NCBI GenBank assembly: GCA_021648085.1
Contig: JAKITS010000001.1
Span: 452,948-516,947 of the forward strand
DNA: 64,000 nt
Direction of reading: 5' to 3'
Source: Candidatus Magasanikiibacteriota bacterium
Lineage (GTDB): Bacteria; Patescibacteriota; Patescibacteriia; Magasanikbacterales; UBA922
Made by a program: the position numbers and the translations under genes. Shown here one piece after another: positions 5,642 to 58,849 of the stretch. Numbering within the stretch: the first letter of the stretch is position 1; each line of letters starts with the position of its first letter. Under the pieces are notes generated by a model. The model ran no database searches and was not told where the DNA came from. It saw nothing but the letters and a program-made list of their open reading frames with translations.

Positions 5642-5667
5642 AATAACTAATTATAAAAATAAATTAT

Positions 5668-5697
5668 CCCCTGGGCAAAAGCCCCAGGGTATTTTTT
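5668..5697 (+). terminator. Rho-independent terminator after dnaB
   Basis: Hairpin ccctggg-caaaagc-cccaggg followed by tattttttg. A second hairpin (acaccgagg…cctcggtgt, 5713-5734) lacks a T-run. Confidence 0.55.
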
Positions 5698-5856
5698 GTT
5701 TTAATTGTTTCCACACCGAGGCAAGCCTCGGTGTATTACTATGAATTAAACAAGAGATGCACTTCTCTTATTTTTTTTTAATTCCATAAAAAACTAGACA
5801 AAAAGCAGGTTTTTAGCTAAGATAGAGACTATATAACATTTTTAATTATAAATATT

Positions 5857-6831: not shown

Positions 6832-6860
6832 ACAAAAACCCGCATTTCGCGGGTTTTTTT
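6832..6860. terminator. bidirectional Rho-independent terminator (A-run/hairpin/T-run)
   Basis: aaaaa-cccgc-atttc-gcggg-ttttttt lies immediately 3' of both recR (+) and the giant surface protein gene (-). It is also part of duplicated segment copy 1. Confidence 0.65.
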
Positions 6861-6866
6861 ATGTTT

Positions 6867-9800
6867 TTATTTTAACTCTTTTCCTATTTCGTATTCTTCA
6901 TCATTTTTTATCGTCACTATTCTATCCCACCTAAAATTCAATCTACTAAAGGCTTCCTCGTTTTTAATATGTCTTTTTACTTGTTTTGTCTGGTCTGTTA
7001 GGTCTGGCTCTAGCCTAAATACTTCTGGGTTATTTTCATATTTAACAAGTGTGTAGTTTGGATGGCGATTTGTATAATCTATTATCTCACCAATTGTGTA
7101 TTTATTGAGAAGTCTTGGGTCAATATCTTCTATCCAATTCCAACTATAGTTTAGCTTATTAAATACTTCTTCAGAGTCTATCCAATATTTTTGATTACCA
7201 AGAAGTAGGTACACCATTGGATCTGTTGTTATTTTTACGAGAGCACCATATTTTGGATCATATTTTGGACCCCAAGGCATAAAACCTAAAGTGTCATCTT
7301 CTACTGTTTCTAGTCTTTTCTCTTCTACTATCTCCACATTATTCCAAGAGTCAAAGTATGTGTAGAAAACATCTGCCCTACTAAAAGCTCTTTTTTTACA
7401 GTCTGGTGTAACAAGATATACGGCAGAAGAGTTTGGTGTTTTATATACTCCACCTTCTTTTAGACTGCAGTCTGAACCTTGTTTTTCTGTTTGAGTATCA
7501 GTCTCAGTTTCTGTATTTAACTCATTTAACAGAATTGTGTCAAAATATGTTGATGCTGTTCCACCGCTTGAAAGAAATTTAGAATAAACAGTTTTTTCTC
7601 CATTTCCAGAAGGCAGTTTCCAGTTTAATTTTGAGGTAAATGGTGTAAATACTGAACCAGCAAAATCTTTTGAATTTGAAACTGCCATTCTATCTGCATC
7701 TAATATGTTAAAAGTTATAGTTACATCTCTTGACTCTGTTGTATAAGCTCCATAATTTATTACAACTGGATTAGAAATTTCTGATTCATCTGTTAAATTT
7801 ATTAGATTAATTTTCACAGAATCATAATTTAAAAACTCTGCATACTCTATTTCCAAATCTAAAACTCCATCTTTGTTTGTGTCTACTTTTTGACTCACAC
7901 CCTTTATTAGGTTCAATATAATTGGGTCTGACTCAATTGTTACCGTAATACTCTCTTTTGCTATTCTAGAGACAAACACACTATGAAAAGAAGCTCCAAC
8001 TTCTGCAGATTTTTCTTCTTGCAGGAAAAACTCTGTAAATAATAATCCTGACGATACACTTTCCGTAGCTGGAGTTTTGGATGGAGTTGGTGGTGGTGCA
8101 AAGAATCCACCGCCGGTAGACGCAACATCGTCATCTGTAATAGTTGCGGTTACACTTGCGATAGTTAAGCTGTCAAAGTTAGAGTCTGAGCTTGCAGATG
8201 TGTTTGAGATTATAGTTGTAGTCTCGCCATCAACCTCGCTATCATCTGTAGCTGTGACTGTCACAGTTTGTTCTGTATCCCAATTTGCATTTGTAAAGGT
8301 GAGGTCAGAGGAAGAAAGACTAACTTCTGAGTTTGATAGTGCGGCTGACACAGTTACATCGTCCGTAGGTTGTGCGTCTAAAACCGCAGTGTATGTGTCA
8401 GTTGTTGACCCTTCTGTCACAGAAACAGACGAAAGAGAGATTGTAACTCCTGCTGTATCATTGTTTGTAATTGTATATGTGTAAGTTGTAGTAGAACCTA
8501 GCGAACCTCCAACAGGGTTTGATATTGTTATTATTAGAGTTTCATCATTTTCAACCAAGTCATCATCTACTACAACCAAACTCAAAGAAGTTGTTGTGTT
8601 TCCATTTGTAATTGAAGCCGTTCCGCTAGAAAGTGTGTAATCTGTTCCACTTCCTGTTGCTGTTCCTCCTGTTATTGCATAATCTACTGAGACATCACTT
8701 ACTACACTTTGATCTGAAGAAATTAAGACAGAGACTGCTGTTGTTCCCTCATCTCCAGAAGCTGTGGTTGCAGAAAAATTAATCTCATAATCAAACTGCC
8801 AACGAGTATTATTTCCAGAATCACTACAACCGGTTGTACATACTATTTGTGTACTACTTAAGTTATTATTATCTTTTACATCTAGATATTGTGCGCTCGT
8901 TGTACTTTTTGGATCAAACTTTGTCTGTGTTCCAGAGCTACTACTTCTTAGGCTCAAAAGATTTCCAGATGTTCCTGCCAAAGTTAGAGTTCCATTTACT
9001 GTTGTGGTCGTACTAGCTGGAAGTGTAAAAGTGTTTGCAGATGAGTCTGTTTTAGTTAGGTTATAAAAAGTATTTGCACCAGAAATTGTCTGGCTTGCGC
9101 CAACAAAGTCTACCGTACTTGAGTTTGGTGTAAGTGTACCTCCTGTGTTTAGGAAGTCTCCTGTTATATTTAATGTTCCAGTTGCTGAATATATTCCAGA
9201 TGCCAAAGTTATATCATTATTTATATTTGTTGTTGCAACACTCGGAGCCAAACTATCTCCAGAATCTGTAAAATTTATAGAAATATCATAAAAATCCACA
9301 ATAGAAGTAGAATAAGCATCTGAACTTGCATCACCATTTCCAACATATTCTACTGTTCCTGAATCTGTGTCATTTGTAAGTGTTACAGTCTCACCTCCTT
9401 GAATACGAAGTGTTCCATCGTTGCTAAATGTACTTGAAACAGTTAAATTATTTCCATTTAATGCGACTGTTCCAGAGCTAATTGTCATTGTGCTTGTAGC
9501 TACCGTACTCGTATTGAATGTATATGTTCCACCTCCTGTGAAAGAAACATCATAAAAAGTTGAAAAACTTGGAAGAGTGTATGAACTAGCTCCATAAAAT
9601 ATAGCTGAACTTCCAGAGCTAAAACTAGGATAAGTTGCGTTTGTTGTAACAGTCTCACCACCTTGCATTTTTAAAATTCCACCATCTTGTACCACTACTG
9701 TTCCAGAAGATCCATTTACTATTAAAGTATTTCCGTTTAGGTCTAAGGTTCCTTCTATTATGTTTAAATCTGTATTCGCATAATCCATTGTTAAACCAGA

Positions 9801-12248
9801 ATTTAATGTGACAGTTCCTGATGATTTATTTATGTTTATATCTGAATTTATTTTATCTTCCACTCCTGTTAAATCTATTGTCTGATCTTGGGTTCCCGTT
9901 AGGTTGAATGTGGCCACATCTAAATTGTCAAATGTGCTGGCCATTGAAAAGTTTGTTCCAGTAAATTCTAATATATTACCAGGCATCCTACCATCAATAA
10001 GATTTAAAGTAGAAGAAACTACTAATGTATCTCCTGAAGCAATAGTGACTGTTTGACCACTATCTCCTTCTATTGTTAAGTTTGTAAAAGTAAAAGTTGT
10101 TGGTACATCTATAGTTGCTGATGTTGAATGAGTATAATATAATGTAGTTCCATTTTCATAAACAGTAGCACCAGCTCCAATAGTAAGATTGTAAACAAGA
10201 CTTGTTGTTCCGGTTGGGAATGTAAAAGTTCCGCCTGTAATAAAAAGACCCTCGTAAATATATGTGATTGAAAGATCACCTGTTCCACCATCGAAAGTAC
10301 CTCCAGAAACTATTAAAGCCCTATAACTTTCCATTAATGCACTTTGCATATTGAAAGTTCCACCAGAGATATTTATAGCATAGGAGTTAAAATCCAAATA
10401 GTTTGAATTTTGAGCATCAAAAGTTCCTCCTGTCATTGTAAAAGCACCGTTAAACACAATGTCAGTAGAACTTGCGTTTATTGTTCCAGCTTCTAAATTT
10501 AAAGTACTTTCAAAAGTAGTAGAAGCTACACCAGAAAATTCTATTGTTGTATTCGTTGCGTTTAGTGTAAATTTAGGCATATCGACATCTGCTGGAATTA
10601 TTATATTCCTTGTGTCTGTTCCTGTTATTTTGAGAAGTCCTGTTCCACCATCAAATGTAGTGGCCATAGAAAATCCACTTCCAGGACCTATAAATTCAAA
10701 AGTACCTGAACCATCCAAAGCACCATCAACTAAATTTAAAGTAGAAGAAACTACTAATGTATCTCCTGAAGCCATGCTCACTGTTTGATTAGTACTTCCA
10801 TCAATTATAAAGTTTGTAAAAGTAAAAGTTGTTGGTACATCTATAGTTGCTGATATTGAATGAGTATAATATAATGTAGTTCCATTTTCATAAACAGTAG
10901 CAGTTGCACCAATTGTTAAATTTCTTTTTAAAGTTGTTGTTCCTGTTGGGAATGTAAAAGTTCCTCCTGAAATTGTAAGATTTGCATATGTATATTGAAT
11001 TGTAAGATTTCCTGTTCCACCATCGAAAGTTCCTCCAGAAACTGTTAAAGTGTTATAACTTTCCATTAATGCACTTTGTAAACTAAAAATACCACCTGAT
11101 ATAGTGGTAGAGCCATTAATATCCAAATAATTTGAGTTTTGTGCATCAAAAGTTCCTCCTGTCATTATAATAGATTTAAAGCTTATATCCGTAGAGCTTG
11201 CATTTATAGTACCAGCATCCAAATATAAATAACCTTCAAAAGTTGTAGACGCTACTCCAGAAAATTCTATTGTTGTGTTTACTGCGTCCAATCTAAGTAA
11301 AGGAAGCTTAACATTTGCATCAAGTATAATATTTCTTGTTTCTACTCCTGATATCTTAAGCTGTCCAGATGATGCAGAAGATCCGCCATCAAATGTTGTA
11401 GCCAAAGAAAAACCACTCCCAGGACCTGTAAATTCTAAAACTCCAGTGCCATCTAGCTCTCCGTCTATAAGCGTAAGAGTGGAAGAGACTATTACAGTGT
11501 CACCAGTATAAATAGCTAACCGCTGACCGCTTCCACCAGCAATTGTAAGGTTTGTAAAAGTAAAAGTTGTTGGAACATTTAAAACAGCACTAGTTATAAA
11601 AGTCATTATCAAATTTGTGCCATTTTCATATACAGTAGCACCAGCTCCAATAGTTAAATCGTCTGTAATAGTTGTTGTTCCGGTTGGGAATGTAAAAGTT
11701 CCACCTGAAATTGTAAGATCTGCATAACTATACTGGAATATCATAGTTCCTGTTCCACCATCGAAAGTACCTCCTGAGAAAACGAAATTATTATATGGTT
11801 CGAATACTGAAGATTGCATATTAAATGTACCTCCTGAAATTGTAGTAGATCCATTAATATCAATAATCGTATCCCCTGCATTAAATGTGCCATCAGCCTG
11901 TGTAAAATTTCCAGTAGTAAGCGTAACACCTGTTGCAACAGTAATAGTCCCAGAATAACCAGCATCTATTTGAAAAGTTGTGACAGTAGAATCAACATCA
12001 ATAGTTGCATTGTCCACATCTCCACCATCAAAAATAGCTATGTCTCCAGAAATAGGATGAGTAGTATCATTTGCCCCACCGGTTGTGGTGGACCAATTTG
12101 TGTCAGCAGAAAAATTTCCTCCAGAAGTTCCTATCCAATATTTGGTGGCTGCTTGTGACGCCGTAGGAATTAGTGAAAAAAATAAAAATAAAAAAATAAA
12201 AAAGAATAATTTTCTATACAAAAAATTATTTTTAGGTTTAGCTATCAT
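6867..12248 (-). CDS. giant secreted repeat protein (1793 aa): signal peptide, 4x ~190-aa beta-helix-like GGTF repeats, Calx-beta-like domains, Pro-rich linker, ~400-aa C-terminal domain; putative adhesin/surface protein
   Basis: N-terminal signal peptide MIAKPKNNFLYRKLFFFIFLFLFFSLIPTASQA. Repeated blocks ISGGTF(N/D)…GGTG…LTISGGTFTFPTGTT…LTIGAGATVYENGT. Calx-beta-like segment …LVVVDDDLVENDETLIITISNPVGGSLG. Linker GGGFFAPPPTPSKTP. Confidence 0.85.
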   Translation of the reverse strand: MIAKPKNNFLYRKLFFFIFLFLFFSLIPTASQAATKYWIGTSGGNFSADTNWSTTTGGANDTTHPISGDIAIFDGGDVDNATIDVDSTVTTFQIDAGYSGTITVATGVTLTTGNFTQADGTFNAGDTIIDINGSTTISGGTFNMQSSVFEPYNNFVFSGGTFDGGTGTMIFQYSYADLTISGGTFTFPTGTTTITDDLTIGAGATVYENGTNLIMTFITSAVLNVPTTFTFTNLTIAGGSGQRLAIYTGDTVIVSSTLTLIDGELDGTGVLEFTGPGSGFSLATTFDGGSSASSGQLKISGVETRNIILDANVKLPLLRLDAVNTTIEFSGVASTTFEGYLYLDAGTINASSTDISFKSIIMTGGTFDAQNSNYLDINGSTTISGGIFSLQSALMESYNTLTVSGGTFDGGTGNLTIQYTYANLTISGGTFTFPTGTTTLKRNLTIGATATVYENGTTLYYTHSISATIDVPTTFTFTNFIIDGSTNQTVSMASGDTLVVSSTLNLVDGALDGSGTFEFIGPGSGFSMATTFDGGTGLLKITGTDTRNIIIPADVDMPKFTLNATNTTIEFSGVASTTFESTLNLEAGTINASSTDIVFNGAFTMTGGTFDAQNSNYLDFNSYAINISGGTFNMQSALMESYRALIVSGGTFDGGTGDLSITYIYEGLFITGGTFTFPTGTTSLVYNLTIGAGATVYENGTTLYYTHSTSATIDVPTTFTFTNLTIEGDSGQTVTIASGDTLVVSSTLNLIDGRMPGNILEFTGTNFSMASTFDNLDVATFNLTGTQDQTIDLTGVEDKINSDININKSSGTVTLNSGLTMDYANTDLNIIEGTLDLNGNTLIVNGSSGTVVVQDGGILKMQGGETVTTNATYPSFSSGSSAIFYGASSYTLPSFSTFYDVSFTGGGTYTFNTSTVATSTMTISSGTVALNGNNLTVSSTFSNDGTLRIQGGETVTLTNDTDSGTVEYVGNGDASSDAYSTSIVDFYDISINFTDSGDSLAPSVATTNINNDITLASGIYSATGTLNITGDFLNTGGTLTPNSSTVDFVGASQTISGANTFYNLTKTDSSANTFTLPASTTTTVNGTLTLAGTSGNLLSLRSSSSGTQTKFDPKSTTSAQYLDVKDNNNLSSTQIVCTTGCSDSGNNTRWQFDYEINFSATTASGDEGTTAVSVLISSDQSVVSDVSVDYAITGGTATGSGTDYTLSSGTASITNGNTTTSLSLVVVDDDLVENDETLIITISNPVGGSLGSTTTYTYTITNNDTAGVTISLSSVSVTEGSTTDTYTAVLDAQPTDDVTVSAALSNSEVSLSSSDLTFTNANWDTEQTVTVTATDDSEVDGETTTIISNTSASSDSNFDSLTIASVTATITDDDVASTGGGFFAPPPTPSKTPATESVSSGLLFTEFFLQEEKSAEVGASFHSVFVSRIAKESITVTIESDPIILNLIKGVSQKVDTNKDGVLDLEIEYAEFLNYDSVKINLINLTDESEISNPVVINYGAYTTESRDVTITFNILDADRMAVSNSKDFAGSVFTPFTSKLNWKLPSGNGEKTVYSKFLSSGGTASTYFDTILLNELNTETETDTQTEKQGSDCSLKEGGVYKTPNSSAVYLVTPDCKKRAFSRADVFYTYFDSWNNVEIVEEKRLETVEDDTLGFMPWGPKYDPKYGALVKITTDPMVYLLLGNQKYWIDSEEVFNKLNYSWNWIEDIDPRLLNKYTIGEIIDYTNRHPNYTLVKYENNPEVFRLEPDLTDQTKQVKRHIKNEEAFSRLNFRWDRIVTIKNDEEYEIGKELK

Positions 12249-12337
12249 ATATAAAAATCTCTATTAATCTTTTAATTATATCTTTTAATTACAATAATAT
12301 CAAATTGGGAATTGTGAATAAAAAATTATTAAAAATA

Positions 12338-12364
12338 AAAAAAGACGCTCAGCGTCTTTTTTTT
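12338..12364. terminator. Rho-independent terminator of rplU (hairpin gacgc-tca-gcgtc flanked by A- and T-runs)
   Basis: aaaaaaagacgctcagcgtctttttttt, 12 nt 3' of the rplU stop. This is the last element inside duplication copy 1. Confidence 0.6.
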
Positions 12365-12377
12365 AACTGAAATATTT

Positions 12378-20950: not shown

Positions 20951-20984
20951 AATTTTTTTAATGAGGCAAACCTCTTTGTGGTGT

Positions 20985-21223
20985 CAATCCTAATTTGAGT
21001 GATATAACCTATTGGTTAGTATTTTTTCAAACTAGTGAAAGAGCAAACGCTCAAATTAGGATTGGGGGCTATCACCAAATATTATTTTGTTGGCTAAATC
21101 TTCAAATTTTGAGCGGGACGAAAAGAAAAAATCTTTGCCCTGCCATAGCATCGGAAATATTTTTTCTTAAAGTCGCAGTCAAAATTTGAAGATTTAGGTA
21201 GAAATAGTGTTTGGTGATAGCCC
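20985..21223. other. two adjacent long imperfect palindromes (hairpin 1: 20985-21064 with 16/17-bp stem; hairpin 2: 21066-21223, ~70-bp imperfect arms incl. perfect 13-bp ggctatcaccaaa/tttggtgatagcc) - candidate structured RNA / regulatory element in mraZ leader
   Basis: Seen directly. caatcctaatttgagtg…cgctcaaattaggattg; ggctatcaccaaat…ggctaaatcttcaaattttgagcgg… mirrored by …cgcagtcaaaatttgaagatttaggtag…atttggtgatagcc. The two track ORFs here (20995-21189 + and 21102-21299 -) give mirror-image peptides, as expected for a palindrome. Confidence 0.6.
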
Positions 21224-21350
21224 TATAGTAGGAAGACAAGCATTTTCCCCACTTCTCACCACTTATATCCATTATATACCACTTCCGCACATTTCTCAAC
21301 CATACTTATCCACAGGGTAGAAAATCATGATGCACGATACAGATAACATG

Positions 21351-21557
21351 AGGCAAAAAACACACATCATCCTGAGCGAAATGGAGCAAAGCGGAATGCA
21401 GTCGAATGCCTGCCGGCAGGCAGGGATCTTGAAATAGTTTCACTAAATTAAGAATTAACAAAGAATAAAAAAGACGGGCTAAAGTTTTATTTTAATTATT
21501 TATACTTTGATTATGTTGTACGGGGATCCGTTCGACTCCACTTCGTTTCGCTCAGGA
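21351..21557. repeat. MITE-like element: 21-bp terminal inverted repeats cacacRtcatcctgagcgaaa flanking AT-rich core
   Basis: Left end cacacatcatcctgagcgaaa (21351-21371); right end tttcgctcaggatgacgtgtg (21537-21557). Also contains the perfect 14-bp palindrome gcctgccggcaggc. Confidence 0.6.
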
Positions 21558-21565
21558 TGACGTGT

Positions 21566-21652
21566 GTTAATTTATCATTCTCAGCTTGACTTAGGAATCC
21601 AGAATCTCCAAATAAGAACATTGATTCAAACCTTAAAACCACAATCAAGTTG
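21566..21652. repeat. MITE-like element (~87 bp) with TIRs tcattcYcaRcttgaYt, related to elements at 27399-27424 and 29639-29729
   Basis: atcattctcagcttgacttaggaatcc … caatcaagttgggaatgac (rc gtcattcccaacttgattg). Confidence 0.55.
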
Positions 21653-21682
21653 GGAATGACAAAAAAGGAACACAGGACATTC

Positions 21683-21716
21683 TACAAAAAATAAAAAAAA
21701 CCGTTAGTTTTACCTA
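21683..21716. terminator. bidirectional terminator (A8-ccgttag-ttttac-ctaacgg-ctttt), probably the uvrC terminator
   Basis: Perfect 7-bp stem with an 8-A run on the plus strand (U-run on the minus strand). Confidence 0.5.
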
Positions 21717-21951
21717 ACGGCTTTTAAAAAACCGATGTCTTTTTTCAAAAAAAGTATATGGAATTTTGCTCAATAAAAAAAATAGAAATAAACCAGGTAA
21801 AAATCCTACGACAAATAGAACACTCCCCCTTCACCCCTAAAGCCTTAAATTTTGTAGCCATTACTTCCTCCTTTAGGAAAAGTATTGAAAAATGAACTAA
21901 AAACTACTAACTCAGAATTATATCCTATTTTACTCCTTTTGTCAGCCTTTT

Positions 21952-23211
21952 TTACCTTATTTTCCTCAACTTCCTCTGATAATTTATTGCAAACCTGTGC
22001 GCCTCATCGCGCACTTTTATGAAAGTTTCTTTGTTTTCTTCTACCAACTTATAATTTATCTGATCAAAAATAAATTCATTCTTTTTTCGTTTGGCGCCTT
22101 TTGCGATTCCAACCACAGGAATTTCTACACTAAATTCCTTCAAAATCTTTTTTACTCTGTTTACTTGCGGTTTTCCACCGTCTATTAGAAATACATTCGG
22201 CAAAAGCCACTTGTCATTACTCTGCTCATCTATGTCCACTGCCCCAGAATGGCGAAGCCTTCTTCTTATTACTTCTTCCAAACAAGCTGTATCGTTTTGT
22301 CCTTTTACAGTTCTTATTTTAAATTTTCTATATTTACTTTTGTTTGCTTCACCGTTTTCAAACACAACCATAGAGCCAACTTTGCCAGTTTCACCCAGAT
22401 TAGAAATATCATAACCTTCTATTCTTTTTAATTTTTTCTCATCTTCAATGTTTGCCACAAAACTTTTGTTTATAAGTGCAATATCACGAATTTCTTGAAG
22501 AGAAAAAATCTGATTGCGAAGTCTGCGCGCCTCCTCGAACTCTTCTTTTTTTGCACTCTCTTTCATCCTTATTTTTAGCTGTTTTATCAAAATCTTCTTT
22601 TTTCCATTCAAAAATAATCCAAGCGGATTTACAATTTTTCTTTTATAATCTTTTGCAGAAATTTCACCTACACAAACACCTTCGCACTGATGCATTTGAT
22701 AATACATACAAGATCGTTTTGCGTTTGGTTTGCACACAGAAAAATGAAAGATCCTACGAAGTACTGCTAAAGTTTCCTTAGATTTTAATCCAGGAAAAGG
22801 CCCAAAAATTTTTAAATATTTCTTTTTTATTTCTTTTTCAGAAAATTGCTTGAAAGTGTGCTGACGCAAAGTCAAAACACGCGAAAATTCATCTTTTGTA
22901 AAAATTATATAATTCCAACTTTTATCGTCCTTCCCTTTTACATTATATTTTGGCTCATACTTTTTTATATAAATTGCCTCCAAAATCACTGCTTCCAGTA
23001 CAGAATCAGTTTGCTTGTATTTTATATTTTTTACCTCGTGAATCAACTCTTCTATTGGTCTAGAAGTTCTTTGCCCAGCAAAATAACTACGCACACGACT
23101 TTTGAGCGAAGTCGCCTTTCCTACATATATAAGCTGTTTTTTTACACAATAAAAAAGATAAATTCCTGGTTTATCTGGTAAATTTTGGATTTTTTTCTTT
23201 ATATTCTGCAT
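21952..23211 (-). CDS. uvrC: excinuclease ABC subunit C (short form, 419 aa, lacks C-terminal (HhH)2 domain)
   Basis: GIY-YIG motif GIYLFYCVKKQLIYVGKATSLKSRVRSYF. UVR motif EEFEEARRLRNQIFSLQEI. RNase H-like endonuclease region IEGYDISNLGETGKVGSMVVFENG. The protein ends ~180 aa earlier than canonical UvrC. Confidence 0.9.
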   Translation of the reverse strand: MQNIKKKIQNLPDKPGIYLFYCVKKQLIYVGKATSLKSRVRSYFAGQRTSRPIEELIHEVKNIKYKQTDSVLEAVILEAIYIKKYEPKYNVKGKDDKSWNYIIFTKDEFSRVLTLRQHTFKQFSEKEIKKKYLKIFGPFPGLKSKETLAVLRRIFHFSVCKPNAKRSCMYYQMHQCEGVCVGEISAKDYKRKIVNPLGLFLNGKKKILIKQLKIRMKESAKKEEFEEARRLRNQIFSLQEIRDIALINKSFVANIEDEKKLKRIEGYDISNLGETGKVGSMVVFENGEANKSKYRKFKIRTVKGQNDTACLEEVIRRRLRHSGAVDIDEQSNDKWLLPNVFLIDGGKPQVNRVKKILKEFSVEIPVVGIAKGAKRKKNEFIFDQINYKLVEENKETFIKVRDEAHRFAINYQRKLRKIR

Positions 23212-23248
23212 AACTTAAGACCTCTTCACTTGATTTTTCTATTATAAT

Positions 23249-23926
23249 ATGTTATTATCTTTTATTCAGTTCATTTCAACTCACCGATTAGGAGACATAA
23301 TGGAAAAACGACTTACAGACAGATTAAAAAATACAAATCCTTTTTTTGTTTACACGGCACTATTCATATTATATGAAGTATTATATGTAATTACAAACAG
23401 AATTCCAACTTTTTATGGGCCATTTGAATTGCCAAAAATATTTTACGAAGACCAAATCCCACTTATTCCAGAAACATCTTTGGTTTACATTTCTATCTTT
23501 GGTTTTATGGCTATTACAATTTGGATGTTGCCGAGAAAATACAAAAACCCAACAGCTATAATATTTATGTATTTACTGTTTATTCACACCTTCATATTCT
23601 TATTTTTTCCAACTATTTATCCGCGCGAAGAGATTACTAATAAATATGGAATATTCGATTGGCTTATGCACGATATAATTCAAGAGTTGGATACTCCACG
23701 AAACTGTTTCCCCTCTCTCCATGTTTCACTTCCGTTTACAATGGCTTTTGTCTGGTTAAAATTAAGTAAAAAAATTGGAATTGTTATACTTTTTATTGCG
23801 ACTTTAATTGCACTTTCAACACTCACTACAAAACAGCATTATTTGCTAGATGTGTTTAGTGCAATAGCAGTTTCATTTATTTTAGTACAGCTAAAGTTCA
23901 AAAATCCTCAAACCTCTTTCTATTGA
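23249..23926 (+). CDS. PAP2-superfamily membrane phosphatase-like protein
   Basis: 6 TM helices. PAP2-like motifs …CFPSLHVSL… and …TTKQHYLLDVFSAI (SRxxxxxHxxxD-like). Confidence 0.55.
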   Translation: MLLSFIQFISTHRLGDIMEKRLTDRLKNTNPFFVYTALFILYEVLYVITNRIPTFYGPFELPKIFYEDQIPLIPETSLVYISIFGFMAITIWMLPRKYKNPTAIIFMYLLFIHTFIFLFFPTIYPREEITNKYGIFDWLMHDIIQELDTPRNCFPSLHVSLPFTMAFVWLKLSKKIGIVILFIATLIALSTLTTKQHYLLDVFSAIAVSFILVQLKFKNPQTSFY

Positions 23927-23937
23927 AAGAGGTTTTT

Positions 23938-26517
23938 TTATTTTAAACTTCTTTTCAAATATTTTCCAGTGTGACTAAAACCATTCATCGCCACATCTTC
24001 TGGAGTGCCATATACTACAACTTCTCCACCTTTGTCTCCGCCATCTGGACCCAGATCAATTATCCAATCTGCACATTTTATCAAGTCCAAATTATGCTCT
24101 ATTATCATTACAGTATTTCCTTGAGACACAAGTCTTTGAAGTACAACTATCAATTTTTTTATATCATCATAATGAAGCCCCGTTGTAGGCTCATCTAATA
24201 AATACAAAGTTTTTGTGGTATTTCTTTTTGCCAATTCTTTACTCAATTTTATTCTCTGAGCCTCTCCACCAGAAAGCGTGGTTGCAGATTGCCCCAAAGT
24301 CAAGTAGTCCAAACCAACCTCATTTAAAACTTTTAGTTTGTCATAAATTTGTGGAATATCTTTAAAAAATTCTTCAGCTTCTGCAATTGTCATATTCAAA
24401 ATATCAGAAATATTTTTTCCTTTAAAATAAATTTTTAAAGTTTCATTGTCAAATCTGTGCCCACGACAAACATCACAATCCACCTGAACGCTTGGCAAAA
24501 AATGCATTTCAATAGTCAAAATACCCTTTCCTTCGCAATTTTCACATCTTCCGCCAACAGTATTAAAACTAAACCTTCCTTTTTTATAACCACGCATTCT
24601 AGCCTCTGGCGTAGATGCAAATAAATCACGAACATGGTCGAAAACTTTTGTATAAGTTGCAGGATTACTTCGAGGAGTTCTTCCAATTGCACGCTGATCT
24701 ATTTTAATTATCTTATCTATATATTCTGTATTCAAAACTTGCTTATATTTACCTGTTTTTTTCTTCACATGATTCAGCCTGTTTGCAACAGTTCTGTACA
24801 AAATATCATTCATCAAAGTAGATTTTCCAGATCCAGAAACACCAGTCAAACACACAAATCTGCGAAGTGGAATTTCTACATTTATATCTTTCAGGTTGTG
24901 CTCTTCTGCTCCTTTTATTTTAATTTTTGGAGTTGTTCTATCTACTTTTCTTCTTTTTTCTGGGACTTCTATTTTCAACTCCCCTCTTAAATATTTTCCG
25001 GTTAAACTATCTACTGTTCCACTCGCCGTACAGCCATAATTATTACTAATTTTGTGATTCTTTTTTGCATCCAGCAAATCATCTGTTCTACCAGAATAAA
25101 TTATATTTCCACCTTTTTTTCCTGCTTCTGGACCAATATCCACAACCCAATCACTCGCCAAAATTGTATCTTCATCATGCTCCACTACAATTACAGTATT
25201 CCCAATATCACAAAGCTGACGAAGTGTTGCAACTAGTTGTTCGTTGTCTTTTTGATGAAGCCCAATTGTAGGCTCATCCAAAACATAAAGTGCACCCACA
25301 AGCTTAGTGCCAACCTGTGATGCAAGGCGAATTCTCTGTGCTTCTCCACCACTCAAAGTCCCAGATCTGCGAGCCAAAGTTAGATAATGCAATCCAACAT
25401 TAAGCATAAAACTAAGTCGATTTTTTATTTCATTTAGTGCAGCAGAAACAATTTCAACCTCTTTCTCATTTAAACCATCCAAATTATTAAAAAAATCTGC
25501 CACATCTGCAATAGTCAAACTCACAAGTTCAAAAATATTTTTTCCACCAACTTTTACATTTAAAGCGTCATTATTCAATCTTCTACCTTCACAAACAGGG
25601 CAAACCTCTTCACTAAACAATTCTTTGGTTCCAAGTCCATGACAATATTTACAATAACCATAAGGACTATTGAAACTAAACATTCTAGGCTCAATTTCTG
25701 GAAAACTATAACTATCTACAGGACAAGAATATTCTGTACTATAAAGCGACTCATCTATATCTGGATAAACTACAATACAAAGTCCATTTGATAAATCAAC
25801 TGCATTTTCCACAGCTTCTGCCAAACGCTCTTTTGTTTCTTTATTTTGTACTTTTTCGTCCCCTGCCAAAGGAATTCTATCTACCACCACTTCTATAGTG
25901 TGTTTTTTCTTTTTTTCCAAAATTATTTGATCACGCAAACTTTTTAACCTTCCATCCACACGAACCTCTAAATATCCAGAGTTATATAAATCATAAAGCA
26001 TTTGATAATACTCCCCTTTTCTACCACGAACAACAGGAGAAAATATTACCAATTCCTGAGCTTTTATTTTTACATTTTTCTTTTTTAAAACCTCTACAAT
26101 TTTATCTACCATCTCGTCCACTGTCATCTTTTCTATTTTTGTATTACATTGCGGGCAGTATGGTTTCCCAATTCTTGCATAAATAACACGCAAATAATCA
26201 TAAATTTCTGTAATTGTAGCAACTGTAGAACGAGGATTTGCACTGTGAGTTTTTTGATCAATTGAGATAGCTGGAGAAAGTCCTTCTATTTCATCTACAT
26301 CTGGCTTTTGCATACTCCCCAAAAACTGCCGAGCATAAGAAGACAAACTTTCTATATATCTTCTCTGACCTTCTGCAAAAATAGTATCAAAAGCCAAAGA
26401 AGACTTCCCCGAACCAGAAAGACCTGTAAACACAATCATTTTGTTGCGCGGCAATTCTAAATTTATGTTTTTTAGATTATGCTCTCGTGCACCTTTTATA
26501 ACTATTTTTTCTTGCAT
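23938..26517 (-). CDS. uvrA: excinuclease ABC subunit A
   Basis: Two ABC ATPase modules ([15 protein letters not shown]…; [15 protein letters not shown]…; LSGGEAQRI x2). Zn-finger Cys clusters (CPQC, CPVCEG, CENCEG). 859 aa. Confidence 0.95.
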
Positions 26518-26609
26518 AGAAAACTAATTGTATCAGAAAAGTAGTATTTTGTAAATATAATTGAATTAAAATATACTTTATGCTAGATTTTAAATAAGCT
26601 CTTTCACAA

Positions 26610-27041
26610 ATGGAGGTAAAAATGGACACGCAGGTTGAATCAGTGGATTATATTTCTATTTTTCTAATGACTTTGGTAAATTCTTTAATAGAATCTACAT
26701 ATACAATTGCCATATATTTTTTATGTTTTTCTGTGTTTATCTTTTTTGTAGTATTTTTAGTTAGAGAAATACTCAAAAAAAGACTTAGGGAAGAAGTACT
26801 CATAATACTTTATCTAAACAGATGTTTTATAAATTCAGAAAAAAGTTTTCCTTTTACAAGAATAAGAAGTGAAATGAGTTTCAAAAAAGATATTAAACCA
26901 AAACAAATTGCAAAATTACTAGCAAATTTGATATATCGAGAGCTAATTCAAGAGGTAAAAGATAGAAAAAATAGTTTATATTGGAATGAAAAACACTACG
27001 CACTCACCCAAAAAGGTAGAAATTTGTTCATAAGTACTTGA
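26610..27041 (+). CDS. hypothetical small membrane protein with possible C-terminal winged-helix-like segment
   Basis: ORF with two hydrophobic helices, then …KQIAKLLANLIYRELIQEVKD…YALTQKGRNLF. Weak. Confidence 0.4.
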   Translation: MEVKMDTQVESVDYISIFLMTLVNSLIESTYTIAIYFLCFSVFIFFVVFLVREILKKRLREEVLIILYLNRCFINSEKSFPFTRIRSEMSFKKDIKPKQIAKLLANLIYRELIQEVKDRKNSLYWNEKHYALTQKGRNLFIST

Positions 27042-27219
27042 CAAATATTAAAAAATAGAGTAGTAAAGACTCACTACTTAGAATATCAAGATCATTTGAT
27101 AATTTAAGTAGGTACGAATACAAAAAACCTACAACCGACAGTCTTGTCTCTGGAATCTGTCATGGCTCCAAAGACAAAGCCCCGCTACTTTCTAGGTAGT
27201 GGGGTTCTTTTTTATTGTT

Positions 27220-27424
27220 ATCATATTGAGCGGAGTGAAACGGAGTTGAAAACCCAATGCACGTCATATTGAGTGGAGTGAAACGGAGTCGAAATATCTC
27301 GATTTAATTTCATTAGAACTTTGAATATTTTATGTTTTGGTGATGATACTGTCCCGAGATCCTTCGGCTTCGCTCAGGATGACGTGTGGGATTTTTGTCA
27401 TCCCCAACTTGATTGGGGATCCCC
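27220..27424. repeat. cluster of MITE-like repeats: partial copy 27220-27262, full ~130-bp element 27260-27390 (cacgtcatattgagYggagtgaaacggagtcgaaatatctcg … cgagatccttcggcttcgctcaggatgacgtgtg), solo gtcatccccaacttgattggggatcc 27399-27424
   Basis: Same termini (cacgtcat..tgagcg / cgctcaggatgacgtg) as the elements at 21351-21557 and 29740-29873. Confidence 0.6.
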
Positions 27425-27570
27425 GCCTACCGGCGGACAAACAAAATTTATATAATAGTGTAATTATTATAGTTTATATATTTTTATATAAAAATAATTC
27501 TGATTTGTAGACTCTGGATTCCCGATCGGGGTCGGGAATAACAATACATATCCAGTTTTATTTTCATGTC

Positions 27571-29625
27571 TTATACCTTTTCCTTATTCTTCCTATTTTG
27601 CTGTTTTTTAAGTAATTTTATTTCATCTCTCAAAACAGTTGCCAACTCAAACTGCAATTCTTTTGCAGCTTTTTTCATTTCAAATTCCTTTTCTCTTATT
27701 ATTTTCTCAATTGGCCTGTCATCCCCTTTCAATTCTAATTCCAAAACTTTTTCCTGCAAAGTTAATTTTTTTGTTTTTTTGGAACTCTTCTTTTTCGTTG
27801 TAATTCCAAATTCCTCCAGCAAATTCTTTATTTCTTTTTCAATTGTTTTTGGAGTTATTTTATGTTTTTTATTATAAGCAAGTTGAATTTTTCTTCTTCT
27901 GTCTGTTTCTTTTATTGCTCGCCCCATAGAACCTGTAATTCTATCGGCATAAAGTATTACTTGTCCATCTACATTTCTAGCAGCACGACCAATAGTTTGC
28001 ACCAAGCTTGTTTCACTTCTCAAAAATCCTTCTTTATCTGCATCTAAAATTGCAACCAAAGAAACTTCTGGAATATCCAAACCCTCTCTCAACAAATTTA
28101 TACCAACCAAAACATCAAATTCGCCTCTGCGCAAACCGGTAATTATTTCAATTCGCTCCATAGTTTTTATGTCGCTGTGCAAATATTTTACTTTTATTCC
28201 TTTTTCTTCCAGATATCCACTCAAATCTTCTGCCATTTTTTTTGTAAGTGTTGTCACCAAAATTCTTCCACCACTCTCAACTTTTTTATCAATCATTTTC
28301 ATTAAATCATCTATTTGAGAAATATTTTTTGCAGTTTCTGTGACAGGCTTAATGATAATTTCTGGATCAATTAAACCAGTTGGACGCACAATTTGCTCCA
28401 CTATTTGACCGCTTCTTTCTAATTCATATTCAGCAGGAGTTGCAGAAGAATAGATAACCTTATCAGTCCTTTTTTCAAACTCCTCAAATTTTAATGGTCT
28501 ATTGTCTCGTGCACTCGGAAGTCTAAAACCATATTCCACCAAATTGTCTTTTCTAGCTTTATCACCCATATACATTGCGCGGATTTGTGGCATTGTCACA
28601 TGAGATTCATCTATAATTGTCAAAAAATCCCCAACTCCGTGTGTGAAATAATCCATAAGAGTGGCAGGCGGTTCGCCTGGCGCGCGCCCATCAAAATGCC
28701 TAGAATAATTTTCAATTCCGTTACAATATCCCAAATTTTTGATCAATTCCAAATCATAATTTACCCTTCTCTTCAACCTTTCATATTCCAAAACTTTTCC
28801 TTGTTTTTTAAATTTCTTCAATTGTTCATCTGCTTCTTTTCGAATTGTTTTTAAAGCTCGCGCACGCAAATCTGACCCAACTACATAATGCTTTGCCGGA
28901 AAAAACCAAGAATCTTCTTGCTCGCGAATTATCTTTCGAGTTATAGGGTCAATTATTTCAATTTTATCTATTTTTTCACCAATTTCAAATCTATAAATTT
29001 TCTCCTCGTTTGCTGGCATAATCTCAAAAAACTGCCCACGCATTCGAAAAGTTCCTCTTTTCAGTTCCAAACTTGTTCGCTCAAACTGCATTTCTATAAG
29101 TTGAGCCAACATTCCCCTTCTATCCATTTTTTGCCCACAAGTGAGGTGAAGTACAATCCTCTCATATTCTGCGGGTGAACCCAAACCATAAATAGCCGAA
29201 ACAGACGCAACAATAATTACATCTTTTCTACTCAAAATAGCCTGTGTACAAGCATGGCGAAGTCGCTCTATCTCATCATTTATCTGAGCTTCCTTTTCTA
29301 TATAAGTGTCCGATCCAGAAAGATATGCTTCTGGCTGATAATAATCATAATAACTTACAAAATATTCCACTGCACTGTCTGGAAAAAAACCCCTAAACTC
29401 TGTACAAAGTTGCGCCGCCAAAGTTTTGTTATGCGCAATCACCAAAGTTGGCAAACCTGTTTTTTCTATCACATTTGCCAAAGTAAAAGTCTTTCCAGAA
29501 CCAGTAACACCTAGCAAAGTCTGGTGTTCAATATTTTTGTTCAAACCACTCACCAACTGCTTTATAGCTTTGGGCTGGTCTCCTGCTGGCTTGTATTTAG
29601 ATTTTATTTTAAATCCTTTTTTCAT
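27571..29625 (-). CDS. uvrB: excinuclease ABC subunit B
   Basis: Helicase motifs (GVTGSGKTFTLANVI; DESHVT; …TIGRAARN). C-terminal UVR domain (KELQFELATVLRDEIKLLKK). The longest-ORF start (29646) lies inside a repeat element, so start MKKGFKIKSKYKPAGDQP at 29625 is preferred. Confidence 0.93.
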   Translation of the reverse strand: MKKGFKIKSKYKPAGDQPKAIKQLVSGLNKNIEHQTLLGVTGSGKTFTLANVIEKTGLPTLVIAHNKTLAAQLCTEFRGFFPDSAVEYFVSYYDYYQPEAYLSGSDTYIEKEAQINDEIERLRHACTQAILSRKDVIIVASVSAIYGLGSPAEYERIVLHLTCGQKMDRRGMLAQLIEMQFERTSLELKRGTFRMRGQFFEIMPANEEKIYRFEIGEKIDKIEIIDPITRKIIREQEDSWFFPAKHYVVGSDLRARALKTIRKEADEQLKKFKKQGKVLEYERLKRRVNYDLELIKNLGYCNGIENYSRHFDGRAPGEPPATLMDYFTHGVGDFLTIIDESHVTMPQIRAMYMGDKARKDNLVEYGFRLPSARDNRPLKFEEFEKRTDKVIYSSATPAEYELERSGQIVEQIVRPTGLIDPEIIIKPVTETAKNISQIDDLMKMIDKKVESGGRILVTTLTKKMAEDLSGYLEEKGIKVKYLHSDIKTMERIEIITGLRRGEFDVLVGINLLREGLDIPEVSLVAILDADKEGFLRSETSLVQTIGRAARNVDGQVILYADRITGSMGRAIKETDRRRKIQLAYNKKHKITPKTIEKEIKNLLEEFGITTKKKSSKKTKKLTLQEKVLELELKGDDRPIEKIIREKEFEMKKAAKELQFELATVLRDEIKLLKKQQNRKNKEKV

Positions 29626-29638
29626 AAGGTAATTCTCA

Positions 29639-29939
29639 CACGTCATATTGAGCTTGACTGGGGATCCAGGGTTTATATCACAGTTCTATTTTGTATACTC
29701 TGGATTCCCAGTCAAGCTGAGAATGACAGAAAACTTTTTCATGTCATATTGAGCGGAGTGAAACGGAGTCGAAATATCTTGGGACTATATCATTAGAACT
29801 TTGAATATTCAGTCTTCTAATGTTTTTGTTTCGAGATTCTTCGGCTGTCGCTCAGGATGGCGTGATAGAAAGGTGATATTGTCTCGAGATCCATTCTACT
29901 TCATTCCACTTTGCCTCATTCCGCTCAGGATGACATGTG
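29639..29939. repeat. cluster of three MITE-like repeats: 29639-29729 (~91 bp, TIR cacgtcatattgagcttgactggggatcc / ggattcccagtcaagctgagaatgacag), 29740-29873 (~134 bp, near-identical to 27260-27390 element), partial 29883-29939
   Basis: Direct sequence comparison. These fill the whole uvrB-rnj intergenic region. Confidence 0.6.
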
Positions 29940-36974: not shown

Positions 36975-37444
36975 ATATTCACTTTCCTGTCATTTCGAAC
37001 TAAAGTGAGAAATCCCTTAAATGTTGATTTAAATATATTCTTTTTTAGCGATAACAACAAAATTCTCTTATCTTACATTTTGGCACCAAAAGATAATCAA
37101 AAGTGCCGAACGGTTGAAAATTTTAGGCTTAATTTCTTTTTAAAACTTATTTAACTCACCGCAGTTCGCTAAATTCGTTATTTTCTGTATCCTCAGAAAA
37201 CCATAAGTTTTGAAAATAAATTAGTCCAAAAATTTCAAATGTTCGGGAGGTTTAGAATAGGAAAAGAAAAGAACATTTCGAACAAGCGAAGCGATAGAAC
37301 AACTTTAACTTTAAAAAATATGAAACACAAAAGTAAAACATTTAAAATATTCTGGACAATCGTAAGTATTGTAATGATTGTAAGTATGGTTTTCTTTACT
37401 ATCTTGCCAGTCTTTTACTAATCTGAGTTTTTGTTCTAAAATAG

Positions 37445-37472
37445 ACAGACAATTAAAATTGTCTGTTTTTTA
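37445..37472 (+). terminator. terminator hairpin acagacaatt-aa-aattgtctgt + T6 downstream of a possible small membrane-peptide ORF (37323-37421)
   Basis: Perfect 10-bp stem and a T-run abutting the annotated recJ ATG. Confidence 0.45.
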
Positions 37473-39229
37473 TGGAAACACATTGGGATATAATGCCAAA
37501 AACTCCAGAGGATATTTTTGAGAAGTTAAATGCTTTGCCAAAATTAGTTTCCACACTCCTCTACAATAGAAATATAAAAACTACCAAAGAGGCAGATGAA
37601 TTTTTGAATCCTGTTTACTCCAAAAATGTTCATGATCCTTTCTTGTTTCAAGATATGCAAAAAGCTGTGGATAGAATTTTTATAGCAATAGAAAAAAAGG
37701 AGAACATAATAATATATGGAGACTACGATGCAGATGGAATTTCTAGTGCAATACTTTTAGACTCTATAATTGAAAAATTGGGAGGAGGAGTAAGTGTATT
37801 TTTACCGCACAGACAAAATGACGGATACGGGTTAAATATAAAAAATATTGAGCAATTTGCAAAAGATGAAGTAAACCTAATAATAACTTGCGACTGCGGG
37901 ATAAGTAACAGAAATGAAGTTAAAAAAGCAAAAAAACTAGGAATAGATACAATAATCACAGATCATCACACAGTTCCAGATATTTTACCAGATGCAGTTG
38001 CAGTAATTCATCCCGGTATAAAAAACACAACATATCCAGATAACACTTTGGCTGGTGCGGGTGTTGCTTTTAAACTTCTACAAGGACTTTTAAAACACCA
38101 CAAAAAAACAAACGAAGTCTTACCAGATGGAGAAAAACACGAAGCATTTGAAAAATGGTCACTTGATATGGTCGCGATTGCCACAGTTGCCGATATGGTC
38201 CCTTTGAAAGGAGAATCACGAACTTTAACCAAATATGGACTACTCGTACTAAACAAAACAAGAAGAGCTGGACTTCAAAAATTATATGTAGAAGCAAGGA
38301 TTGCAGAAGTAGATGGAAAACTGAAAAAAAGAATTACAGAAGAAACAATTGGTTTTTATATAGCACCTCGAATAAATGCTGCCGGAAGAATTTCACACCC
38401 AAAAATTGCCTTTGACTTATTAAAAACAAAAAGTAAAACAAATGCTGTAGACTTAGCCTATTTATTGGATACTCACAATAAAAATAGAAGGCAAGAAACA
38501 GAAATTATCTTAAAAGACGCACTTCATATTGTAGAAAAAGAACAATACGACAAAGAAGTTTTATGTGTAATTGGAAAAAATTGGTCTAGCGGACTAGTTG
38601 GGCTTGTTGCAAGCAAATTGAAAGAAAAATACAATAGACCTGCACTCGTTGTATCTCATACTCAATCTCTGGTTGGTTCTGGGAGAAGTATCACAGGCTT
38701 CAATATGATAGAAGCTATGCAAAAAATGCCAGAATTTTTTGTTAAATTTGGCGGACATCCTATGGCTTGTGGATTCACCTTAAAACACATTGATATTGTA
38801 GAAGATTTTCAAAATAGCTTAATAAAATATTTCCTAGAAACAGGAGACAAAGATAGACGAAAAGTAATCAAAATTGACACAGAAGTAGATTTGGAAAAAT
38901 TGGACTGGGATATGTACAATTATGTCCAAAGATTTGAACCTTTTGGAAAAGACAATGAAAAACCAAAATACCTTGCAAACGAACTTACAATTACACACAT
39001 ACAACAAATGGGAAAAGGTGGAAAACATGTTCGACTAATGGTAAAACACAGATCCCAAAGAATTTTTAAAGTAGTTGGTTGGAATTTATGTGGTAGAAAA
39101 GAAAAAGATTGGTGTCAAATTTTACGAATTGGTGATAAAATAGACATAGTTTTTGAACTTGGGATAAATGAGTGGAATGGAACAACAGAACTACAAAGAA
39201 CTATAATCGACATTAGAAAAACTACATAA
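37472..39229 (+). CDS. recJ: single-stranded-DNA-specific exonuclease RecJ
   Basis: DHH motifs (IIIYGDYDADGISS; ITDHH). DHHA1 region (GGHPMACG). C-terminal OB-fold region. Confidence 0.9.
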   Translation: METHWDIMPKTPEDIFEKLNALPKLVSTLLYNRNIKTTKEADEFLNPVYSKNVHDPFLFQDMQKAVDRIFIAIEKKENIIIYGDYDADGISSAILLDSIIEKLGGGVSVFLPHRQNDGYGLNIKNIEQFAKDEVNLIITCDCGISNRNEVKKAKKLGIDTIITDHHTVPDILPDAVAVIHPGIKNTTYPDNTLAGAGVAFKLLQGLLKHHKKTNEVLPDGEKHEAFEKWSLDMVAIATVADMVPLKGESRTLTKYGLLVLNKTRRAGLQKLYVEARIAEVDGKLKKRITEETIGFYIAPRINAAGRISHPKIAFDLLKTKSKTNAVDLAYLLDTHNKNRRQETEIILKDALHIVEKEQYDKEVLCVIGKNWSSGLVGLVASKLKEKYNRPALVVSHTQSLVGSGRSITGFNMIEAMQKMPEFFVKFGGHPMACGFTLKHIDIVEDFQNSLIKYFLETGDKDRRKVIKIDTEVDLEKLDWDMYNYVQRFEPFGKDNEKPKYLANELTITHIQQMGKGGKHVRLMVKHRSQRIFKVVGWNLCGRKEKDWCQILRIGDKIDIVFELGINEWNGTTELQRTIIDIRKTT

Positions 39230-58729: not shown

Positions 58730-58849
58730 AAAAAAATAACGAAATAATAATACATACATTATACCACAAAATAAAAAATATTTAAATTTATAAGACAAAA
58801 CAAAAAACAAGCCTTATGCTTGTTTTTTGTTTTTGAAGTTTTTTGAAAA

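Follow-up and report, generated by a model that had tools for sequence, protein, structure and literature searches.

Two classes of GTC-tagged hairpin repeats in a candidate phyla radiation genome and their proposed relation to Ssn-type nucleases

A family of tagged hairpin repeats near uvrC and uvrB

The 64,000-nucleotide stretch analyzed here, referred to throughout as the window (contig JAKITS010000001.1, positions 452,948 to 516,947, of GenBank assembly GCA_021648085.1), comes from a low-G+C member of the candidate phyla radiation (CPR) whose best named UvrB relatives are Candidatus Magasanikbacteria, with a top match of 91% identity. It contains about 16 copies or remnants of short tagged hairpin repeats in the region around uvrC and uvrB, which an initial annotation had described as resembling miniature inverted-repeat transposable elements (MITEs). 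The repeat family is real but was wrongly filed as MITEs. Its units fall into two classes, of which class B is a CPR member of the CGTC-tagged kind of repetitive extragenic palindromes (REPs) and class A is a variant. We consider it probable that these are two classes of tagged hairpin repeats of which class B is related to the target sites of Ssn nucleases, with the hairpins being cut in single-stranded DNA (ssDNA) by an Ssn-type nuclease.

The units occupy three spacers, between mraZ and uvrC, between a hypothetical gene and uvrB, and between uvrB and a beta-CASP RNase gene. The terminal motif CACGTCATCCTGAGCG, with three or fewer mismatches, has eight matches in the window, all inside these three previously named loci, and 100 dinucleotide-preserving shuffles gave none; the second end type has three matches where none is expected. 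Both end types of the initial description are thus borne out, as is the general picture of a noncoding, hairpin-forming, multicopy family, which is also present in relatives and far beyond them. This wide occurrence excludes purely local tandem duplication, the outcome that the initial annotation had set against a mobile family. Two elements that it called nearly identical, A2 and A3 (Table 1), are dispersed copies of a single element, 87% identical across their first 70 nt; the likeness starts at CAYGTCAT and stops at ATGRCGTG, the edges are sharp, the flanks are unrelated, and no target-site duplication was found at the flanks of either copy.

Some details of the earlier description have to be revised. 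A covariance model of class A (R1), for which the training units were taken only from other organisms, recovers nine window units at an E value of <1, a single one of which (36986-37017) is outside the three loci; with the decayed hairpins at about 20984-21065 and 21094-21197 it contradicts the reported absence of repeats from the rest of the window. The supposed solo end at 27399-27424 belongs to B2, which extends to 27542 and whose right arm is a decayed unit with the tag GTT. Folding into a long hairpin was predicted for the paired elements A1, A2, A3, and B3 as had been proposed, but not for the partial copies at 27220-27259 and 29885-29939.

Rfam searches of the window, of the repeat region at a relaxed E value, and of seven foreign motif-bearing loci identified no family covering the units; there was no match at a gathering threshold, and only chance-level matches to microRNA-like hairpins were seen. 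Canonical terminator-like hairpins with T-tails are present in the same spacers at 21696-21725 and 27178-27206, whereas the units have no T-tails. Intrinsic terminators and known structured RNAs were therefore rejected as identities for the units, given the missing T-run, the terminators located elsewhere, and the negative Rfam result.

Anatomy of the units

The basic unit is a tagged hairpin of 25 to 45 nt, consisting of GTC, a palindrome with AT at both ends, and then C. The "elements" of 90 to 200 nt are inverted pairs of units of the same class, with the tags pointing outward and an A+T-rich spacer of 35 to 130 nt, and each of what had been described as their termini is a complete tagged hairpin unit, of a kind that also occurs singly. 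Most units are paired in this way. In all well-preserved window units of both classes, GTC is directly 5' of the AT-first palindrome and C is directly 3' of it. Other units in the window are decayed, with tags mutated to ATC, GCC, or GTT or with broken stems.

Class B has the form GTC ATCCCCAA CTTGA TTGGGGAT CC(A), with an 8-bp stem, the 5-nt loop CTTGA, and a CCA tail. As ssDNA its units are predicted to be more stable than shuffled sequences (the left unit of B2, z = -2.5 at -7.4 kcal/mol; the right unit of B3, z = -1.9). Class A, the commoner class, holds the "TGAGCG" termini of the initial annotation and makes up most of the finding. Its form is GTC AT-NNN GAGCG...CGA N'N'N'-AT C(TC), in which a covarying 5-bp Watson-Crick stem encloses a structured core of 11 to 30 nt and is followed by a CTC tail. 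The window has the stems ATCCT/AGGAT and ATATT/AATAT, and the 91% relative has ATCCC/GGGAT.

The class A stem is a real structured unit, judged by covariation. Across all of the DNA that was fetched, the stem triplets are complementary in 122 of 131 class A units, with eight pair types, compared with a mean of 51 and a maximum of 67 in shuffles, and the palindrome is followed by C in 124 of the 131. Among 28 short class A units the inner pair, which was not used in selection, also covaries (GC in 23, AU in 4, GU in 1, and unpaired in none); the 100% pairing of the outer stem in these 28 is without weight because that stem was preselected. The short class A core contains GCGAAGC flanked by tandem G.A. 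The DNA mini-hairpin GCGAAGC is unusually stable, and its stability is missed by nearest-neighbor models.

Class A is not confined to inverted pairs. Firestonebacteria contig L223 carries three head-to-tail units with a 35-nt period on its minus strand at about 4920 to 5020 (GTCATCCTGAGCGAAGCGAAGGATCTGCGCGAAGC), and the class therefore also forms direct tandem arrays. We also note short G+C-rich palindromes just inside the first units of A1 and B2, at 21408-21425 (gcctgccggcaggc) and 27423-27440 (ccgcctaccggcgg), respectively, which resemble nested G+C-rich insertions in unit loops elsewhere (for example, in L212 and L147).

Class B repeats and Ssn-like GIY-YIG genes

Class B fits membership of the superfamily of CGTC-tagged REPs on its sequence features. 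As described by Di Nocera, De Gregorio, and Rocco (2013, BMC Genomics 14:522), these repeats have a CGTC, TGTC, or CCTC tag, an 8- to 9-bp stem starting with AT, a 4- to 5-nt loop, and a CCA tail, and occur mostly as inverted dimers, often heterodimers. They are strikingly similar in sequence across phyla, lack a dedicated transposase, and include Neisseria dRS3 and Rickettsia RPE-4 and RPE-6. Class B shares the tag, AT-first stem, loop, and tail; B1, B2, and B3 are all inverted dimers, and a transposase is missing from the window too. The tags preceding the window class B stems are tttGTC, tctGTC, and cacGTC, and genome loci have mostly tGTC or cGTC and in some cases cCTC.

The two differ in known range. 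The published repeats come from five phyla, none of them CPR, whereas a degenerate 23-mer of class B, ATYCYCARCTTGAYTGGGRATCC, spans about 20 phylum-level groups among the matches listed, as read from the record titles, including Patescibacteria lineages, Bacteroidota, Planctomycetota, Chloroflexota, Proteobacteria, Armatimonadota, and Zixibacteria. At least 120 stretches match it in one-genome-per-species contigs, with a chance estimate of <1. The usual setting is tGTC-ATTCCCAACTTGATTGGGAAT-CCAG, then 10 to 40 nt, and then CTGG-ATTCCCGCTTTCGCGGGAAT-GACa. The tail is CCA in 138 of the 186 perfect units in the loci listed for the 23-mer, and for 43 of the 128 class B matches listed, a tagged partner in inverted orientation lies no more than 110 nt away (median spacer, 24 nt).

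A biochemical partner for one branch of such tagged hairpin repeats, long an orphan feature, is provided by recent work on Neisseria (Chenal et al., 2025, Nat Commun 16:2388, PMC11893778). The Neisseria NTS motif, CGTCATTCCCGCGMAVGCGGGAATCYRG, is bound as an ssDNA hairpin by SsnA, a 94-amino-acid (aa) single-domain GIY-YIG nuclease that cuts a few nucleotides upstream of NTS and is inactive on double-stranded DNA and RNA. Cleavage requires the triplet immediately 5' of the palindrome, binding requires the C that directly follows it, the SsnA-NTS pair lowers transformation by NTS-bearing DNA, and ssn genes are typically flanked by such motifs (PMC11893778). The window units resemble NTS in having GTCAT, a hairpin, and ATC(C)AG, and both classes, across phyla, retain the tag and the trailing C at the positions important for SsnA on NTS.

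Class B is also found directly beside Ssn-like genes in CPR and other phyla. Six of the 120 loci listed for the 23-mer contain a gene for a GIY-YIG protein of 94 to 108 aa, and in five of these the gene is closely preceded by an NTS-type unit and closely followed by a class B unit; the order is reversed in L132, with class B upstream and the NTS type downstream. Three of the six are CPR loci, from Peribacteria (L132), Saccharibacteria (L212, encoding a 98-aa protein), and Daviesbacteria (L219). In additional cassettes from the CPR, a small GIY-YIG gene has tagged units on either side, and 11 cassettes in the viral collection are flanked by NTS-type units. This small GIY-YIG family is large, with at least 7,997 members at E ≤ 1e-10 and 70 to 100% identity among the top matches. 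We call the CPR proteins Ssn-like on the basis of the Pfam GIY-YIG domain, protein size, and residues Y6, Y17, and E64, the positions mutated in Neisseria SsnA (PMC11893778), all three of which are present in the 94-aa L219 protein; the published nuclease type is cd10448, and a named SsnA entry to which the CPR proteins could be tied was found in neither PDB nor NCBIfam. With Ssn-like genes flanked in three CPR lineages, class B would extend the known host range of the Ssn system to the CPR.

The borders of the CPR ssn genes look like they retain a trace of how the units multiply. Half-unit tandem arrays are present on both sides, with three copies of GTCATtcctaattatctcact upstream and seven to eight of cgggaATGACaaagagaag downstream (Table 1), and two CPR genomes with the same Ssn protein and flanks (L265 and L267, ~2300 to 2530) differ by a block of ~156 nt that holds one NTS-type and one class B unit. 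Both the arrays and this unit-pair indel fit spread by nick-and-repair or template switching. Mosaic arrays are a further likeness to Neisseria, where the intergenic mosaic elements are related to NTS, as is the bracketing of genes in an NTS-gene-NTS order.

Turnover in relatives

The repeats are not a constant companion of the uvr genes. Four contigs encoding the 91%-identical UvrB end ~150 to 500 nt from uvrB, inside repeats of both classes, and there uvrB is bracketed by inverted-orientation class A units, similar to the NTS-gene-NTS order. The arrangement and subtypes are unlike those of the window, with only one upstream class A unit recognizably orthologous, and one contig (L122) has tandem arrays of a ~80-nt module downstream of uvrB. 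No units were found at uvrB in the relatives with 81% and 74% identity. Two longer contigs from the sample of the 91% relative carry mixed class A and class B clusters by polA/holA, gdh/thioredoxin, and methyltransferase/truB genes, and a lineage-specific metagenome scan yielded five stretches. The link between the units and the uvr genes is thus local and not specific, contrary to the special association proposed at first, and the family is dynamic on a short evolutionary scale and not a conserved regulatory feature of these genes.

Two observations on relatives are of separate interest. L169 and L224, from records (CAZHUL01) titled "uncultured Gammaproteobacteria bacterium," have 77 to 81% identity in noncoding sequence to window positions 21072-21230 and 5652-5749 and, in addition, spacers of class B pairs in common with the 91% relative; CAZHUL01 is probably the metagenome-assembled genome of a CPR relative with a wrong taxonomic label, judging by this similarity. 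In the 74% relative, 2 kb separate the beta-CASP RNase gene from uvrB (L126 8017-10000), in which a single open reading frame (ORF), of 45 aa, was called; GTCAT units are absent, and a stretch near 8020-8110 resembles a tRNA.

Proposed mechanism and alternative explanations

Under the reading that we favor, the units would act as ssDNA, with the hairpin forming when DNA becomes single stranded during replication or repair or upon entry of transforming DNA. A single-domain GIY-YIG nuclease of ~95 aa belonging to the Ssn family would bind the hairpin and nick a few nucleotides 5' of the tag. Nicking of this kind would restrict recombination across the flanked genes, and the units would be multiplied and reshuffled through cut-and-repair or through template switching at the hairpins. 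The host genome would presumably encode an Ssn protein outside the window, for which class B units would be the substrates, and class A units may be handled by the same Ssn or by another, analogous hairpin-specific nuclease. The initial annotation had already pointed to an enzyme acting on single-strand hairpins; this was a good lead, although the best candidate is a GIY-YIG Ssn and not TnpA.

Several observations weigh against this reading. No Ssn or other small GIY-YIG gene was detected by tblastn or hmmsearch --max in the window, in which the sole GIY-YIG domain is that of UvrC, and the fetched contigs from the sample of the 91% relative similarly have no Ssn gene. The published search pattern for Ssn-related motifs (SRM), HGTCWYN(0-2)YYVSBRHN(0-5)WNVSBRGN(0-2)RNCYNB, has no matches on either strand of the window, which it misses because the inner stems of the units are AA/TT or GA..GA and not G+C rich. 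Nearest-neighbor DNA energies predict no stability for class A units taken singly (z ≥ 0), and many units may be inert relics because their tags are mutated or their stems broken. The route by which Ssn-type repeats multiply is not known even in Neisseria (PMC11893778). We note, too, that this host is a small-genome CPR bacterium and not a proteobacterial symbiont or pathogen, the setting in which NTS and SsnA are established.

The remaining difficulties concern class A, and they are what make its independence the main live alternative, that is, that class A is a separate and undescribed system of GTC-tagged hairpin repeats with an enzyme of its own, merely coresident with an Ssn-type class B. 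We regard this as a minority possibility, albeit one to be taken seriously. Pairing is class specific (43 A-A pairs, 95 B-B pairs, and 1 mixed), with no regular pairing of class A with class B or NTS-type units, and 1.1 Mb of contigs from the viral collection contain class A in abundance but hardly any of the other two. Among 17 distinct cassettes and the additional CPR ones, none has class A flanking its Ssn-like gene, and a 5-bp stem, an 11- to 30-nt core, and a CTC tail place class A outside the stem and loop rules of the CGTC-tagged REPs, as well as outside the SRM pattern. Literature searches with class A strings from both strands returned only unrelated primer sequences, and BLAST with a class A pair matched four annotated plasmid records, all cyanobacterial, and nothing in cultured phages. 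However, class A has three features in common with class B and NTS, namely, a GTC tag, an AT-first stem, and a trailing C, and its GCGAAGC core is close to the NTS core GCGAAAGC. Loci chosen only for class B are enriched in class A, with 21 units in 0.81 Mb, and the two classes are neighbors in every cluster of the window and its relatives. Nor did a partner of its own emerge: clustering of ORFs within 300 nt of 121 class A units gave only clusters made up of related phage-like contigs, no recurrent gene is enclosed by class A(+)...class A(-) pairs 200 to 2,500 nt apart, and three scans of the viral collection for gene-sized cassettes, GTCATCCTGAGCG-N(320-412)-CGCTCAGGATGAC, returned no matches. 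A second small GIY-YIG type, taken from L131, gave no useful loci.

With the shared features set against the class-specific pairing and the failed partner searches, we treat class A as a sister class whose ssDNA-hairpin mechanism may be analogous but is unproven. It is at least as widespread as class B, and by sequence it is a variant missed by both published definitions; because it keeps the tag and trailing-C positions relevant to SsnA yet escapes these definitions, it is a testable candidate for a second enzyme-and-site pair, and such pairs are of practical interest as site-specific ssDNA cutters. A bolder and rather doubtful extension is that class A represents an unrecognized, near-universal class of tagged ssDNA hairpins with its own nuclease and that together with class B it may preferentially fence genome-maintenance genes in small CPR genomes. 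If true, fencing could shield uvrC, uvrB, recJ, and polA from replacement by incoming ssDNA.

Movement of the elements as nonautonomous transposons appears improbable, whether a DDE transposase were to mobilize them as MITEs or a Y1 enzyme, such as TnpA or a REP-associated tyrosine transposase (RAYT), were to mobilize them as hairpin-ended elements or as REPINs (GTAG-tagged REP doublets). The elements do resemble classical MITEs such as Correia elements, and palindrome-associated elements derived from IS200/IS605, in being 90 to 200 nt, inverted-repeat-ended, noncoding, and dispersed in multiple copies with sharp boundaries, and the intergenic inverted doublets of short tagged palindromes that fold into one long hairpin are formally REPIN-like, with an action presumed to be at the ssDNA level, where Y1 enzymes work on hairpins. 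But the target-site duplications of a MITE are missing at A2 and A3, the ends are autonomous hairpin units also found alone, and the near-identity of units across the many phylum-level groups noted above is unlike MITE families. The cognate transposase suggested by the initial annotation was not found among the 56 ORFs of the window, IS200/IS605 Y1 enzymes included, and no parent insertion sequence is present there. RAYT-linked REPs have GT[AG]G at the hairpin foot, where the units here have GTC-AT, and the gene found flanked by units encodes a GIY-YIG nuclease and not a domesticated Y1 transposase; Di Nocera et al. (2013) likewise found no transposase gene flanked by CGTC-type repeats. We give least credence to the proposal that the uvr operons use the hairpins for cis regulation or as terminators, for instance in the form of transcript-stabilizing or damage-responsive RNAs, which seems very improbable. 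Their location in the 5' and 3' flanks of uvrC and uvrB, the recurrence of repair genes beside units, and the capacity of other bacterial REPs to stabilize mRNA or terminate transcription would all suit it. Against it stand the turnover among relatives (no units at uvrB in two of them, a different arrangement in the closest, and clusters beside unrelated genes in contigs from the latter's sample), the presence of both orientations at each locus, the lack of T-tails next to separate terminators, and the lack of an Rfam match.

Units in the window and their genomic setting

The units and remnants are listed in Table 1. The two decayed hairpins upstream of A1 are assigned with caution: that at 20984-21065 is possibly an old class A relic, its membership being tentative since it is missed by R1, and that at 21094-21197 is possibly the relic of a class A pair. 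The solo unit at 36986-37017 lies in the lepA-recJ spacer, 12 nt past the lepA stop codon, and its outer stem and inner A-T pair are compensated relative to the consensus.

Table 1. Tagged hairpin units, pairs, and remnants in the window, and half-unit arrays at CPR ssn genes (folding energies of pairs computed with RNA parameters; E values from covariance model R1)
Feature	Position	Strand	Description
Decayed hairpin	20984-21065		Arms tcaatcctaatttgagtg / cgctcaaattaggattg, (A)TTTGAGYG core, no GTC tag
Decayed hairpin with 50-nt arms	21094-21197		Contains caaATTTTGAGCGggacgAAAAg; arms 80% complementary; weak hairpin-only Rfam match
A1, class A inverted pair	21363-21564		202 nt, long AT-rich spacer, -78.5 kcal/mol
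A1 left unit		+	Mutated tag ATC
A1 right unit	21522-21564	-	GTC ATCCT GAGCGAAACGAAGTGGAGTCGAAC GGAT C; E = 0.0075
B1, class B inverted pair	21574-21660		Both units decayed, -21.8 kcal/mol
B1 left unit	21574-21602	+	Tag ATC; E = 0.36
B1 right unit	21640-21660	-	GTC ATTCCCAA CTTGA TTGTGG
A2p, solo decayed class A unit	27220-27259	+	Tag ATC; 3' stem AAACC, not AATAT; no fold
A2, class A inverted pair	27260-27386		Sharp boundaries, -45.4 kcal/mol
A2 left unit	27260-27301	+	GTC ATATT GAGTGGAGTGAAACGGAGTCGA AATAT C; E = 0.002
A2 right unit	27355-27386	-	GTC ATCCT GAGCGAAGCCGA AGGAT C; E = 5e-9
B2, class B inverted pair	27394-27542		89-nt AT-rich spacer
B2 left unit (27394-27424)		+	GTC ATCCCCAA CTTGA TTGGGGAT CCC; perfect 8-bp stem, 5-nt loop
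B2 right unit	27514-27542	-	GTT ATTCCCGA CCCCGA TCGGGAAT CCAG; mutated tag
B3, class B inverted pair	29639-29730		Directly upstream of uvrB, -50.8 kcal/mol
B3 left unit		+	Chimeric: class A-like 5' arm (ATATTGAG) with class B loop and 3' arm
B3 right unit		-	GTC ATTCTCAG CTTGA CTGGGAAT CCAG; ssDNA z = -1.9
A3, class A inverted pair, copy of A2	29740-29864		Right unit with tag GCC and one stem mismatch, -51.7 kcal/mol
A4p, solo long-loop class A unit	29885-29939	-	84% complementary to A1 left arm
Solo class A unit	36986-37017	+	cctGTC ATTTC GAACTAAAGTGA GAAAT Cc; 30 bits, E = 1.2e-6
Half-unit arrays	L269 1630-1740 and 2040-2230; L270 likewise		Bordering CPR ssn genes

The uvr genes themselves are not dispersed, as had been stated; uvrC, uvrA, and uvrB are all within 8 kb, in a gene order that is kept in the 74% relative. 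The revised uvrB start at 29625 holds up, with conservation to the 91% relative opening exactly at that ATG (MKKGFKIKSKY...) and unrelated sequence upstream. For annotators, the practical lesson is that such units break assemblies, make spurious ORFs, and push start calls upstream, as for uvrB here.

Genes adjoining unit clusters often have functions in repair or replication, including uvrC (21952-23211), uvrB (27571-29625), recJ (37472-39229), and polA/holA (L261 6657-8693), and one CPR ssn gene adjoins NUDIX and DinB genes (L273 2343-3760); REPs within uvrA and uvrB are among those listed by Di Nocera et al. (2013). We give this recurrence, a post hoc observation from a small sample, little weight.

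Two further features of the window were noted. Adjacent ORFs at 58214-58810 and 58850-59365, 72% identical in nucleotide sequence, have a type IV pilin N-terminal methylation motif, and this pilin-like pair may bear on DNA uptake and hence on the role of ssDNA-cutting sites. There is also a direct duplicate of 5,542 bp with 99.66% identity (6834-12365 and 46817-52357), either a real duplication or an assembly artifact, each copy of which contains a minus-strand ORF of 1,793 aa (6867-12248 and 46849-52230) with a Calx-beta match and internal tandem repeats of ~732 to 738 nt.

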